Positions 33,001 to 36,000 of a stretch of DNA of 64,000 nucleotides are shown in pieces (the stretch's first letter is position 1; each line of letters opens with the position of its first letter). The DNA is from Candidatus Spyradenecus sp. (GTDB taxonomy: Bacteria > Verrucomicrobiota > Verrucomicrobiia > Opitutales > UBA953): the NCBI GenBank assembly GCA_045535075.1, contig JAZSKX010000018.1, positions 288,001 through 352,000 on the forward strand. The letters are read 5' to 3'. Made by a program: the position numbers.

Positions 33001-36000
33001 ACGGTATTTAACGCGAGATGGTTGAATATTTGCCATTGGATTTTCCTTTCTCTATAGGAGTGGAATTAGATTTCGGATTCCTTCGTGCAAATCCAGCACT
33101 TGATTCCGAGTTTTCCGTAAACCGTATTGGCTTCCGCAAATCCGTAGTCGATATTTTCACGAAGCGTGTGCAACGGAACACGACCGACGCGAGCGGATTC
33201 AACACGAGCAATTTCTGCGCCGCCAAGACGACCGGCAATGCGGAGACGAATACCATCTGCACCCATGCTCATCGTAGCTTGAATAGCCTTCTTCATCGCA
33301 CGACGGAATGCAATACGGCGTTCGAGTTGAAGAGCGATATTTTCAGCAACGAGCTGAGCCACAAGATCCGGTTTTTTAATTTCCTGGATATCAAGAATAA
33401 CGTCTTTACCCGAAATCTTGGCAAGATCGTCGCGGAGCTTTTCGAGCTCTCCGCCCTTACGACCGATAACAACGCCCGGCTTCGCGGTGAAAATTTTCAC
33501 GCGGATGCGAGCTCCCGCACGTTCAATCGAAATCGACGGAACGCCTGCCTGACGCAGTTTTTCGTGAAGGAACTGACGAATTTCGTAGTCGCTCTTGATG
33601 TTCGCGGGGAACGTCTTCTTATCTGCGAACCAACGAGATTCCCAGTTGCGGCGAACCGCGAGACGAAAACCGATAGGATTTGTTTTCTGACCCATAGTCT
33701 AAAATTGCGGATGGTTATTTTTTATCGCCGACCACAATCGTGATGTGGCTGGTGGATTTACGAATCGGATGTGCGCTACCTTTCGCCGTCGGGCGGAAGC
33801 GCTTCAGCATCGGACCTTGACCAACCGTCGCAGCAACAACAACCAAATCCTTCGCGGAAAGATTATTGTTATTTTCGGCGTTAGCAATGGCGCTGTTGAG
33901 CGTTTTGGCCAGCAAGCGGGCGGATTTGCGCGGAATAAAACGGAGAAGATCAGCCGCTTCGAGTACCGGGCGACCTTGAATTTGGCGTGCAACGTCACGC
34001 ACCTTCGACGGTGTCATGCGCACAAACTTGGTAATAGCTTTAACTTCCATGTGGAACTAAGTTAAAAAGTAATGGTTTTGAGTTTGACCGAATCTCCGGT
34101 CAAAATCGTTTGTTTCGTATTAAGTTGTGTAATCAAAGCAACCGAATTTTCGGCGTTTGCTTCGGCAATGATAAGCTCGGCAACGGATTCGCCGTCGCGT
34201 TCGACGACGCAAAGAGCTCCAGTGCAGAAATTCTTTTCCATTCCCGAATTGAGAAGCACTAAATCGGCGCTCGTTCCCGCAACTACTTTCTGAACCGAAG
34301 CCAGTCCCTCCGAAGAAATTTCGTAAGACAGAACCTTGGCAAAAAGCGTTCCCGCAAGCCCGATAAACATCAGGCTTGCGATAACTAAAGCAGTTGCAAA
34401 ACGTGATTTCACGAATTAGACAGCTTTCTTCGTAGGAGCCGTATGAGCCTTGAACGTGCGCGTCGGCGCAAATTCACCGAGCTTGTGGCCAACCATGTTT
34501 TCCGTCACATAAACGGGAACAAAAACTTTCCCGTTGTGAACGTTGAGGTTGAGTCCGACAAAGTCCGGCGTCACCGTGGAGCGACGCGACCAGGTTTTAA
34601 TCGGCTTGTGATCTCCGGCTTTCTGTGCCGCTTGAACCTTCTCCATGAGAGATGCTTCGACATAAAAGCCTTTTTTGATTGAACGTGCCATTGTCTATTA
34701 GCCCTTCTTAACTTTGCGTCCGTTGCGACGAACAATAATATGAACGTTCGTGGACTTGGATTTAATGCGCGTCGGGAACCCTTTCGCGAGTTGTCCCCAC
34801 GGAGAAGAGAGGTGCTGGCGGCCACCGCCACCCTTGGACTTACCCTGACCCCCGCCGTTCGGGTGGTCAACCGGATTCATCACCATACCGCGAACACGCG
34901 GACGGCGTCCAAGCCAGCGATTGCGCCCTGCTTTGCCGAGCGTGCGGTTATAATGTTCGCCATTGCCGACATAACCGATGGTTGCACGGCAATCCGCGTT
35001 CAGATAACGCTGTTCTCCGGAAGGCATTTTGACGATAGCAAGATCGCCTTCGATACCGAGCAACTGAGCGGCATTACCGGCGGAACGCGCAATACGCGCC
35101 TTTTGACCGGGTTCCATCTGAATCGCATGAATAAAGGTCGCGGGAGCGATATAGCGCAGCTTGACCGTGCATCCCGGATTGAATTCTTCAACCGGATTCA
35201 TCGTCGAAACAACGGTATCACCGACTTTCAAACCTTCAGGAGCAAGAATGTAAGCTTTTTCCCCATCCGTGTATTGGATGAGAGCCAAGTTTGCCGAGCG
35301 GTTAGGATCGTACTCGAGAGCGAGAACGGTCGCCGGAATTTCAACTTTCGCACGACGGAAGTCCACCAAGCGATAGAGACGCTTGTGCCCTCCTCCGCGA
35401 CGACGCGAAGTAATGCGACCGTTATTGTTACGACCGCCGGTGCGATGCTTGGATTCAACCAAGTCTTTTTCCGGACGCTTTTTCGCGAGATCCTGCTTAT
35501 TGCGAACAAGGAAACGCTGCGAAGGCGTAAGCGGACGATTAGATTTGAGTGCCATATTATATGTTCCTCTATCTTAAAACGTTAAATGAGTTCAATCTTG
35601 TCACCCTTTTTGAGCGTGACGATTGCTTTTTTAACATCCGGAGCCTTGATGACTTCCCCGCGCTTCGTGCGGGATTGTTTCACCTTGCCCTTGGTGTTGA
35701 CAACATGAACGCGTTCGACGGTAACCTTAAAGGTCGCTTCAACCGCCTTGGCGATTTCCGGTTTCTCCGCATTCGGATAAACTTCAAAAACGTATTTGTT
35801 GGCTTCCGCGAGGGTAGCCGTCTTTTCGGAGACGAGCGGACGTTTGAGGACGCTGTATGCAGATTTCATAATGAATATTCTCCTTATTGAGCGCGTTCGA
35901 TGATTTTCTGCAAACCTTGTTCGCTGACCAAAACCTGATCAAAAGCAACAAGATCCAACGCATTGAGCGTTGCGGCATCCGTAACGGAAACACGTTCGAT

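Follow-up and report, generated by a model that had tools for sequence, protein, structure and literature searches.

A small, putatively exported beta-barrel protein encoded between rpsS and rplV in Verrucomicrobiota

The window analysed here is a stretch of 64,000 nucleotides from Candidatus Spyradenecus sp. (contig JAZSKX010000018.1, positions 288,001 to 352,000), in which the genes for the ribosomal proteins S19 and L22 are separated by a small gene, here named X. According to the ORF listing, the sequence, and the translation, X occupies positions 34062..34412 of the minus strand and comprises 116 codons plus a stop codon, with a GTG start at 34410-34412 and a TAA stop at 34062-34064. Directly upstream lies rpsS (34416..34691, minus strand; PF00203, E 1e-35), whose TAA stop codon (34416-34418) is followed by TTC and then by the GTG of X, leaving a spacer of 3 nt. 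Downstream lies rplV (33715..34050, minus strand; PF00237, E 2e-36), with its ATG (34048-34050) 11 nt after the TAA of X. The gene order rplB-rpsS-X-rplV-rpsC on this contig, all on the minus strand, had been described in an earlier note on this DNA and was seen again in our ORF listing, with the flanking genes being confirmed as S19 and L22 by Pfam.

The earlier note left two start codons open, an open frame of 117 codons and a called gene of 102 codons. The N-termini of relatives and the invariance of the upstream GTG favour the 116-codon form and not the 102-codon call. The N-terminal stretch that begins at the upstream GTG is continuous in 15 of 19 aligned database relatives, 14 of which open with MKS and one with MKA, while one of the remaining relatives has two residues missing there and three start further in. 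At the DNA level, a GTG start at the identical spacing is invariant in all seven close relatives aligned.

X is a genuine protein-coding gene that is conserved at the protein level, as the earlier note had proposed, and a search with the single protein finds homologues in 54 of the 121 genomes of the order Opitutales. The note's statement that no Pfam family covers X also stands, with no family obtained at E-values up to 10. The best NCBIfam match is TIGR03192 with 13.5 bits against a cut-off of 380, and none of the ribosomal protein family models of Pfam or NCBIfam matches X. We found no description of a gene at the rpsS-rplV junction in the open literature on PVC signature proteins, on the Verrucomicrobia S10 operon, or on insertions into ribosomal protein clusters, and the family is apparently undescribed.

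All 30 related loci that were fetched show the order L2-S19-X-L22-S3, which bears out the claim that X lies between S19 and L22, and they encode a signal-peptide-like N-terminus and a conserved barrel of about 85 residues. The placement was re-found by tblastn in 24 of these loci and in the other six by a HMMER match combined with reading of the ORF. The spacers are short throughout, with 2-34 nt between rpsS and X and 3-38 nt between X and rplV. In its position X resembles a passenger gene of a ribosomal protein operon, lying on the same strand as its neighbours with short spacers on both sides (3 and 11 nt) and being syntenic in 30/30 loci. A search with the alignment of close relatives returned eight loci, being six close relatives (Opitutales-type MAGs), one Opitutaceae MAG at 38% identity, and one chance match of 25 residues.

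X had been said to keep this place across the order, and this holds for about half of the genomes. Both rpsS and rplV were found in 118 of the 121 genomes searched. The gap between them is 345-595 nt in 55 of the 118 genomes, which fits the gene, and 2-182 nt in the other 63, which is too small for X. The description of X as a stable or fixed member of the S10 operon is contradicted by these absences, which furthermore imply that any role of X is dispensable or replaceable.

The description of X as a feature of Opitutales proved too narrow. In the phylum Verrucomicrobiota, a barrel profile finds matches in 198 of 401 genomes. Among 139 genomes of the phylum the rpsS-rplV gap measures 345-1128 nt in 45 and at most 187 nt in another 45, while a 322-nt gap without an ORF was found in one genome, and rpsS and rplV lie apart in 48. 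Akkermansia, other Verrucomicrobiae, and Kiritimatiellia encode at this position a longer form of the protein, composed of a signal peptide or anchor, a coiled coil, and the same barrel, and such long forms were read in all 11 fetched loci with gaps of 511-1128 nt. In Lentisphaeria the two ribosomal genes are separated; of five Lentisphaeria-type genomes fetched, four carry a long form upstream of rplV, with rpsS located on another contig or far away. It is rplV, then, that X keeps as its neighbour even where rpsS is elsewhere, and as sampled here the family is limited to Verrucomicrobiota.

The barrels of the short and long forms align, and the structure model of a long form is predicted to contain helices at residues 7-73, 82-120, and 126-143, followed by the barrel at 160-232 with a pLDDT of 95-97. 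When 20 proteins of both forms were scanned with Pfam (E <= 1), no family was obtained for the barrel, and only sub-threshold coiled-coil families appeared, for example, DivIC, ZapB, and tropomyosin. Judged by the alignments, X is a shortened form of a longer coiled-coil protein found across much of Verrucomicrobiota. The ancestral protein would have had 160-346 residues, with a signal peptide or N-terminal anchor and a long coiled-coil stalk preceding the same barrel, and its gene may have stood directly upstream of rplV since before the split of Verrucomicrobiae, Kiritimatiellia, and Lentisphaeria. The stalk would then have been lost in the order of this window and the gene would have been lost from this place in many lineages. 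Paralogues with an N-terminal anchor, a coiled coil, and the same barrel were fetched at eight loci of the phylum, and a scan of 50 ORFs around them (paralogues included) indicated no common neighbour or pathway.

The conserved domain of X is a six-stranded beta-barrel encoded by codons 37-111 (34080..34304, minus strand), the blocks of which are modelled by AlphaFold with a pLDDT of 96-98. The strands span residues 37-44, 51-54, 67-72, 75-85, 90-97, and 108-111, with G57, G65, and L93 unchanged throughout 30 homologues. The earlier note had reported a six-stranded AlphaFold barrel with weak and generic Foldseek matches, and we reproduced both, with 76 residues at a pLDDT of at least 90 and a best E-value of 1.5e-3. 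Nothing is found at E <= 1e-3, and the matches between 1.5e-3 and 1e-2 include the F1 alpha/beta barrels, alanine racemase, and FlgT (3w1e, 5.2e-3); Foldseek also lists the archaeal ribosome chain 6skg_Bf.

The best structural match of X is the FlgT-type C-terminal domain of 8z5n_5 (LPHT ring entry; residues 290-377), with a Z of 10.7 and an rmsd of 2.0 over 73 aligned residues. The N-terminal barrels of V1/F1/G1, HerA, and FliI follow with a Z of 8.6-9.7, and MreC (7eft, 6zlv, 2qf4, 2j5u) with 7.7-8.4, where a Z of 7-8 is typical of models without a true relative and the small barrel is very common. Lower in the list are 3jc8_Ta from a type IVa pilus machine model (Z 6.9) and 6ve2_O from a PilQ-TsaP entry (Z 6.4), along with barrels linked to RNA or the ribosome, being Gar1 (2ey4_C, Z 7.2) and domains in EF-Tu, IF2, eRF3, and SelB entries (Z 6.3-7.0). 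An Atlas lead for X is a cluster carrying FlgT_C (score 0.83), and a PDB sequence search with the barrel profile gave nothing at E <= 0.001, the best matches being 9dq7_P (E 0.074) and then 6ve2_O (E 0.25). By modelled fold, the C-terminal domain of FlgT comes nearest to the barrel, followed by the ATPase N-terminal and MreC barrels. Since the fold is common, a FlgT-like fold alone shows no kinship. By analogy, we infer a structural or scaffolding role of X in the envelope and not an enzymatic one, because FlgT, TsaP, MreC, and the crowns of the F1/V1/HerA ATPases use this fold to pack against like subunits or partners.

These resemblances open the question of whether X has diverged from a known envelope family and works together with the machine in question, be it as a second MreC-like protein of the cell-shape machinery or as a FlgT- or TsaP-like ring protein in a flagellar or secretin machine. 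The order of hydrophobic segment, coiled coil, and barrel in the long forms is that of MreC, and the Z-scores to MreC and 8z5n_5 as well as the weak sequence match to the PilQ-TsaP entry point in the same direction. However, the genome has a canonical MreC elsewhere, X has one barrel where MreC has two, none of the models of these families matches by sequence, and no conserved neighbour ties the paralogues to any machine. We consider such a membership unlikely.

The N-terminus of X resembles a signal peptide (codons 1-25; 34338..34412, minus strand). It opens with MKSR, continues with a hydrophobic run, and ends in LFA before KV, showing the n-region, core, and small residues at -3/-1 of a Sec/SPI signal peptide. 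Our feature script gave a hydrophobic maximum of 2.72, an n-region charge of +2, and an uncharged run of 21 residues, and the structure model places a helix at residues 8-18 with low pLDDT. Past the hydrophobic run the motif AKVLSYE is conserved among close relatives, and the net charge following this run in the homologues is mostly zero or negative. The script, which is our own and not a trained predictor, looks for a positive n-region, an uncharged run of at least 14 residues, and a hydrophobic core, and all three features are present in 36 of 45 homologues compared to 8 of 64 other ORFs of the window. Residues 1-40 of X contain no cysteine, so that there is no lipobox. The homologues had been described as starting with signal peptides or a lipobox; the first part agrees with these counts, while a clear lipobox is seen by eye in only one of 30 homologues of the order (LLAGC in locus L027). 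The view that X looks exported is supported by these features, and the protein is probably cleaved after LFA (residue 25). The Sec pathway would take it to the periplasm, where the cut would leave a single six-stranded barrel of about 90 residues.

Alternatively, X might be cytoplasmic or membrane-tethered and act on the ribosome or on L22, with the N-terminus being an anchor or a buried helix and the barrel binding RNA or a ribosomal protein. The persistence of X beside rplV where rpsS has moved off would fit such a role, as would the same-fold barrels in Gar1, in translation factor entries, and in an archaeal ribosome chain, and the paralogues of the phylum have N-terminal anchors that look uncleaved. 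Against it, the positive n-regions, the uncharged runs of 15-25 residues, and the small residues that precede a mature end of neutral or acidic character form an N-in, C-out pattern, the codon usage of X is unlike that of ribosomal proteins, and the top structural match belongs to a periplasmic ring protein. The gene is also missing from this place in more than half of the order's genomes and about one third of the phylum sample, unlike a ribosome component, and we regard this alternative as quite unlikely.

A third set of observations concerns transcription. RNA-library contigs of one study cover X along with its neighbours, and a 2094-nt contig spans rpsC, rplV, X, and most of rpsS (window positions 33000-34715), which does not prove a single transcript, and DNA carry-over is possible. 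A scan of window positions 30500-40500 indicated no promoter- or terminator-like sites flanking X, the site counts being no higher than in shuffles. Co-transcription with the S10 operon, which the earlier note had assumed, is plausible given the short spacers in 30 loci, the lack of flanking sites, and the RNA-library contig. Separately, the RNA runs of a second study match only parts of this stretch at 90-95% likeness; they stem from relatives and are not evidence for this organism.

The note had furthermore proposed that the dose of X is tied to ribosome synthesis, and the properties of the gene itself do not support this. The codon adaptation index (CAI) of X is 0.617, at the 43rd percentile of the other ORFs, compared to 0.706-0.827 in 14 ribosomal protein genes; this comparison is soft, because the reference set consists of the ribosomal genes themselves and X is short. 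The start codon is a GTG and lies inside a structured part of the mRNA (34273..34417, minus strand) that covers it and about the first 46 codons of X, with a small hairpin pairing the GTG and a 16-pair hairpin in the signal-peptide codons. The fold z-score of the start region is -5.18, and among the operon windows X has z-scores of -4.0 and -4.7, with 13 of 17 others above -2. On a 240-column alignment, 92.3% of cells are paired compared to 37-45% when the structure is slid, and there are 19 two-sided pair changes compared to 3-8 slid and 7.8 +/- 1.9 shuffled, where the structure was derived from the same seven related sequences that make up the alignment. In a set of 23 loci from the order, the median z is -1.68 for the 5' portion of X compared to -0.81 to +0.57 for flanking segments. 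A covariance model searched against 34 other loci and the window gave only its own copy, one marginal match inside X of locus L013 (E 0.16), and rows at chance level, and Rfam gave no match on window positions 30000-42000 at E up to 1. The average codon usage, the GTG start, and the structured start together suggest that translation of X may be set far below that of its neighbours.

It is very unlikely that the RNA and not the protein is the main selected feature, with the start of X being a translational operator or processing site for rplV-rpsC and the protein a tolerated passenger. In favour are the marked fold z-scores at X compared to the majority of the operon windows, the pairing and two-sided changes above slid and shuffled controls, and the tendency to more structure than in the flanks across 23 loci. 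Against this stand a barrel that is conserved across classes, unlike the DNA and the modelled structure, the missing Rfam match, the location of the structure some 220 nt from the rplV start in the 5' portion of X, and support from only seven related sequences.

We favour, with reasonable confidence, the reading of X as a Sec-exported periplasmic barrel protein, a stalk-less descendant of an ancient rplV-linked protein, which would serve as a scaffold and be co-transcribed with the S10 operon at throttled translation. An X mRNA made together with the S10 operon would rise and fall with the ribosomal protein mRNA, while its translation would probably be lowered by the hairpin-paired GTG, the structured 5' coding region, and the ordinary codon usage.

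Few gene neighbourhoods in bacteria are as fixed as the rpsS-rplV junction, and in Verrucomicrobiota, Akkermansia included, a gene for an exported-type protein is kept there or directly before rplV. As Akkermansia is an intensively studied bacterium of the gut and the literature cites a genetic system for it, this apparently undescribed family is directly testable. A bolder reading, which we regard as quite improbable, is that X and rplV form an ancient, functional pair, with a periplasmic scaffold of stalk and ring-type barrel being produced from a ribosomal message since the ancestor of Verrucomicrobiae, Kiritimatiellia, and Lentisphaeria, so that ribosome synthesis meters envelope building, and with the structured mRNA start acting as a ratio control, possibly bound by a ribosomal protein like the operators of other operons. 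If so, Akkermansia and other carriers would depend on X to an important degree for their growth or cell shape, and the link would be one of the rare instances in which envelope construction is wired into a ribosomal protein message. If the link is not functional, the long, short, lost, and split states would still be a useful marker for sorting Verrucomicrobiota families. With its putatively throttled translation, X may also serve as an example of a passenger gene kept at much lower output than its operon neighbours.

Among described proteins restricted to the PVC group, CT421.2 is a small signature protein of unknown function with about 53 to more than 80 residues, according to excerpts of Gupta et al. 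2012 (PMC3444138), which make no mention of the ribosomal operon; the terms S19 and L22 do not occur in the paper. Both proteins are small, CT421.2 being the shorter, and the descriptions in excerpts of PMC3444138 and PMC2474590 set the two apart. Compared by these partial descriptions, X and CT421.2 are probably unrelated.

The closest fold is found in the FlgT C-terminal domain (PF16538; 3w1e and 8z5n chains). FlgT is a periplasmic flagellar ring protein of Vibrio, and X, by its N-terminal features, would be exported as well. X lacks the other FlgT domains, and PF16538 (FlgT_C, cut-off 27 bits) has no match in X or in the whole genome at E up to 10. TsaP (entries 6ve2 and 3jc8) forms a ring around the secretin of the type IV pilus, and the barrel profile weakly matches residues 258-292 of 6ve2_O, with scores at noise level (E 0.25, Z 6.4-6.9); unlike TsaP, X has no LysM domain. 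In MreC (PF04085), an N-terminal membrane segment and a coiled coil are combined with two beta-barrel domains. An N-terminal hydrophobic segment, a coiled coil, and a beta-barrel are likewise present in the long forms of X, but these still have one barrel, and X itself has one barrel and no coiled coil. X was considered and rejected as the genome's mreC, as it has no Pfam match and the PF04085 match of the genome (98.3 bits) is at contig C5:219369-219830, outside the window.

Non-ribosomal passengers are well known from ribosomal operons, with secY, adk, map, and infA in the spc region and rpoA in the alpha operon. These genes of the spc and alpha parts are found almost universally, and their functions are known. 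Unlike them, X lies between rpsS and rplV, was seen only in Verrucomicrobiota in this sample, has undergone many losses, and belongs to no known family. Like them, X is a non-ribosomal gene on the same strand, separated by spacers of a few to tens of bases, in the S10-spc string, and, as with SecY, its product would belong to the envelope and not to the ribosome, judging from its predicted export.

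Gene X belongs to the passenger genes of ribosomal protein operons. The S10 string of ribosomal protein genes lies on the minus strand of the window and, by its translations, reads from the 5' end fusA, rpsJ, rplC, rplD, rplW, rplB, rpsS, X, rplV, rpsC, and rplP onward. Pfam was run on rpsS and rplV only among the operon's ribosomal protein genes, and their products are unambiguously S19 (PF00203, E 1e-35) and L22 (PF00237, E 2e-36). On the minus strand, X begins with a GTG at 34410-34412 and ends with a TAA at 34062-34064 (116 codons), with the GTG 3 nt downstream of the rpsS stop codon and the rplV ATG 11 nt past the X stop. 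The open reading frame (ORF), the flanking S19 and L22 matches, and the syntenic relatives bear out the gene that the earlier note had placed between rpsS and rplV. Its start, which had been left open between 102 and about 117 codons, is taken as the upstream GTG and not as that of the 102-codon call, because the N-terminal stretch is common to 15 of 19 aligned database relatives (14 open with MKS, 1 with MKA) and because the rpsS stop, three bases, and the GTG are kept in seven aligned close DNA relatives, the GTG being invariant. One further relative of the 19 is without two residues in this stretch, and 3 start further in.

X matches no Pfam family at E values up to 10, and its single NCBIfam match, of 13.5 bits, is meaningless. 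Full-text literature searches returned no description of a gene at the rpsS-rplV junction, and the family is apparently undescribed. The PVC signature protein CT421.2, as described in excerpts of two papers (PMC3444138, PMC2474590), differs from X, a comparison of descriptions and not of sequences.

Within the order Opitutales, a search with the X protein by itself gives matches in 54 of 121 sampled genomes, and in 30 of 30 returned loci the match is flanked by S19 and L22, and these in turn by L2 and S3 (24 positions re-found by tblastn, the other six placed by the HMMER match and the ORF itself). The proteins of these loci are 108-185 residues long, start 2-34 nt past the rpsS stop, and end 3-38 nt short of the rplV start. 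Their identity to the X protein of the window is only 23-51%, compared with 57-88% for L22 from the same loci. A C-terminal pattern of about 85 residues is kept in all 30, with G57, G65, and L93 invariant and D50, I94, G106, and D107 nearly so. X also has two cysteines five residues apart, at residues 63 and 68 (F-C-T-G-A-L-C, 34209-34226, minus strand); among close relatives C68 is invariant and C63 almost so, other families keep only one of the two, and the pair could form a periplasmic disulfide.

Both rpsS and rplV were found in 118 of the 121 genomes, always on the same contig and strand, and the distance between them is bimodal, being 345-595 nt in 55 genomes and 2-182 nt in 63. The first group takes in 53 of the 54 protein matches; the remaining one, in genome G100, was rejected as a chance match (E 0.008, in a 1043-residue frame). 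Since the gaps fall into these two groups, X is common in the order, yet not fixed, so that the claim of a place kept across the order holds for 55 of 118 genomes and fails for 63. The insert is found in all sampled members of 17 families, in none of 22, and in some members of 2. Most of the smallest genomes (0.8-1.4 Mb) are among those that lack the insert, but so are families of 3.6-8 Mb. Intermediate gaps of 103, 103, 182, and 322 nt occur in the genomes G004, G092, G113 (family f5), and, in the phylum sample described below, G223; no ORF was read in these gaps, the 322-nt locus alone (L072) having been inspected, and they could be remains of a decayed X.

Searched against 1.84 billion representatives, a profile of the barrel domain matches 1474 representative clusters at E <= 0.001, of which 259 reach E <= 1e-10; most of the 150 matches listed have 85-190 residues and carry the domain C-terminally. 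One 402-residue representative (P0238) matches in four stretches, indicating that the barrel also occurs as a tandem repeat. Across the phylum Verrucomicrobiota the profile matches 198 of 401 sampled genomes, those matches that come from other orders falling in frames of approximately 170-390 residues. We placed rpsS and rplV in a sample of 141 phylum genomes and compared coordinates in the 139 with both genes. The gap is 345-1128 nt in 45 genomes and at most 187 nt in 45; one has a 322-nt gap with no same-strand ORF of 70 codons, and in 48 the two genes are apart, on different contigs or separated by 47.7 kb or by >600 kb.

Eleven fetched loci with gaps of 511-1128 nt each hold a single ORF of 160-321 residues in the gap; its product has a hydrophobic N-terminus and a long helical region of heptad-like character, and it ends in the same barrel. 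The model of this long form (Akkermansia type) has helices at 7-73, 82-120, and 126-143, and its barrel then occupies 160-232 (pLDDT 95-97). Where rpsS and rplV are split, a long-form ORF of 232-346 residues lies upstream of rplV in four of five fetched genomes, ending 12, 43, 30, and 421 nt before it; one of these long forms, in locus L074, was missed by the barrel HMM and recognised by eye and by alignment with the others. The fifth genome has an unrelated 152-residue ORF upstream of rplV instead. In the split loci (genomes G125, G141, G174, G188, G179, and 43 more; loci L074-L080) the break falls after rpsS, and unrelated ORFs follow rpsS in both split loci read.

Named from public sources, the family with rpsS-rplV gaps of 745-785 nt is Akkermansia, two families with gaps of 556-793 nt are Kiritimatiellia, and families with the genes apart include Victivallis, Lentisphaeria, and Oligosphaeraceae, further families being split as well; the close relatives of the window are gut metagenome-assembled genomes named Opitutales bacterium, Candidatus Spyradenecus, and Candidatus Spyradosoma. 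The simplest reading, in which the order of events is inferred, is that a common ancestor of these classes would have had the long form between rpsS and rplV, that the gene string would then have been broken between rpsS and X in Lentisphaeria, that the stalk would have been lost in the order of the window, and that X would have been lost many times from this place. Several Verrucomicrobiae have an L22 of 145-164 residues with a lysine/alanine/glutamate-rich C-terminal tail (L062:358-831, L063:329-820, L064:1656-2093, L072:425-871, L073:902-1339), compared with 110-116 residues elsewhere.

Many genomes of the phylum also encode paralogues of 250-360 residues, which combine an N-terminal anchor that looks uncleaved with a long coiled coil and the same barrel, here with an N-P/S-x-W-N-F-V motif. 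Among the loci examined (L082-L089), some paralogues stand in tandem, for example L083:3434-4279 with L083:4286-5185 and L086:2398-3480 with L086:3532-4317. A Pfam scan of the paralogues gave no family, and their neighbours at these loci have nothing informative in common. By the barrel profile search, the genome of the window has X only and no paralogue.

The AlphaFold model of X, built from a 30-sequence alignment, has a mean pLDDT of 83.7, with 76 residues >= 90, and shows six strands between residues 37 and 111, preceded by a helix at 8-18 that corresponds to the signal. Foldseek returned nothing from the PDB at E <= 0.001, the first rows being the F1 alpha/beta N-terminal barrels, alanine racemase, and FlgT 3w1e (1.5e-3 to 1e-2), which reproduces the earlier result of generic small barrels only. 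In an independent structure search, where even queries that have no true relative usually reach a best Z of 7-8, the top match is residues 290-377 of a flagellar LPHT ring entry (8z5n_5; Z 10.7, rmsd 2.0, 73 residues), followed by the N-terminal barrels of V1, G1, and F1 ATPases, HerA, and FliI (Z 8.6-9.7) and four MreC entries (Z 7.7-8.4); a proper MreC is present elsewhere in the genome. Lower matches include a type IVa pilus machine model (3jc8_Ta, Z 6.9), a PilQ-TsaP entry (6ve2_O, Z 6.4), and the RNA-linked barrels of Gar1 (Z 7.2) and of EF-Tu, IF2, eRF3, and SelB entry domains (Z 6.3-7.0). For X the protein Atlas returns three unnamed Verrucomicrobiota clusters at 0.93-0.95 and, as a lead only, a cluster at 0.83 in which 11% of members have FlgT_C. 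The top structure match and this lead suggest a barrel that is FlgT_C-like by fold, but the fold is common and the FlgT_C model finds no match in the whole genome at E values up to 10, and we make no claim of membership.

The N-terminus of X consists of MKSR, 21 uncharged and mostly hydrophobic residues up to LFA, and then KVLSYE. A simple script, not a trained predictor, asked for a hydrophobic maximum of at least 2.0 over 11 residues, preceded by a net positive charge, and for at least 14 uncharged residues in a row; all three features are present in 36 of 45 homologues, short and long, compared with 8 of 64 non-overlapping ORFs of the window (singly, a positive n-region in 43 and the uncharged run in 44 of the 45). 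Past the uncharged run, the next 20 residues are for the most part acidic or neutral, which fits N-in, C-out insertion. This circumstantial evidence from sequence is good, and X is likely exported via Sec, in agreement with the signal peptide proposed earlier. The lipobox also proposed is clear by eye in only 1 of 30 homologues of the order, and a lipoprotein is ruled out for X of the window, which is without a cysteine in its N-terminal part.

No promoter- or terminator-like sites beyond chance flank X. Two metatranscriptome runs of one study contain 88-89% of the sampled words of a 2.6-kb stretch, and in one of them a 2094-nt contig covers 33000-34715 with 10 differences, a span that takes in rpsC, rplV, X, and rpsS except for a few bases at its start. 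The second run has two contigs that join within X. These contigs fit one message but cannot establish it, and such libraries may contain DNA. Co-transcription with the S10 operon, previously assumed from position, is likely.

The dose of X is a different matter. Its codon adaptation index is 0.617 compared with 0.706-0.827 for all 14 flanking ribosomal protein genes, which are themselves the reference, and stands at the 43rd percentile of the 53 other ORFs of the window. The message moreover appears to be folded into a conserved structure at 34273-34417 (minus strand), over the start codon and the first approximately 46 codons, in alignments (A5/A6) with the close relatives L090-L095. The fold of 34030-34450 (minus strand) has a z of -5.18 against 100 shuffles. 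When the operon was tiled with 18 consecutive 421-nt windows, the tile that covers the 5' part of X (34168-34588) reached -4.7 (34030-34450, scored separately in that scan, -4.0), and 13 of the 17 others lay above -2. The exceptions are 37115-37535 (-5.0), 36694-37114 (-3.7), 32484-32904 (-3.0), and 36273-36693 (-2.1); the first two, over rpsJ with the 143-nt rpsJ-rplC spacer and over rplC, respectively (both minus strand), have no Rfam match and could be an operon control element.

For the window and six close relatives, RNAalifold gives 76 pairs, with 92.3% of cells paired compared with 37-45% when partners are slid by 1-3 columns. Two-sided changes occur in 19 pairs, compared with 3-8 slid and 7.8 +/- 1.9 shuffled (0 of 500 reach the observed value), the structure being derived from the same seven related sequences, two of them nearly identical. 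A four-pair hairpin takes in the GTG itself, and within the signal-peptide codons lies a 16-pair hairpin, 9 pairs of which show two-sided changes, mostly in the most distant sequence. A covariance model built from the seven sequences, applied to 34 loci of other families, found no further copy bar one marginal match inside X of L013. Over the first 200 nt around the X start in 23 loci of the order, the median z is -1.68, compared with -0.81 to +0.57 for flanking segments, and only 1 of the 23 reaches -3. The structured start is probably a clade-level device that lowers translation of X; a wider regulatory role is possible but unsupported. The low codon adaptation index, the GTG start, and the structured message around it argue against a dose equal to that of ribosomal proteins, and the earlier proposal that the dose of X is tied to ribosome synthesis is rather doubtful.

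Overall, export and co-transcription are the likely parts of the earlier interpretation, and the ribosome-matched dose is the doubtful part. Our best guess, from the common fold, is that X may have a periplasmic scaffold role. The presence of X in Akkermansia raises its interest, as the gene is testable there. Ribosomal protein operons carry a few non-ribosomal passengers, namely secY, adk, map, infA, and rpoA. X resembles these in its placement within such an operon and resembles SecY in lying on the envelope side of the cell, whereas, unlike them, it stands at a different place, is taxonomically narrow in range, has been lost repeatedly, and has no assigned function.
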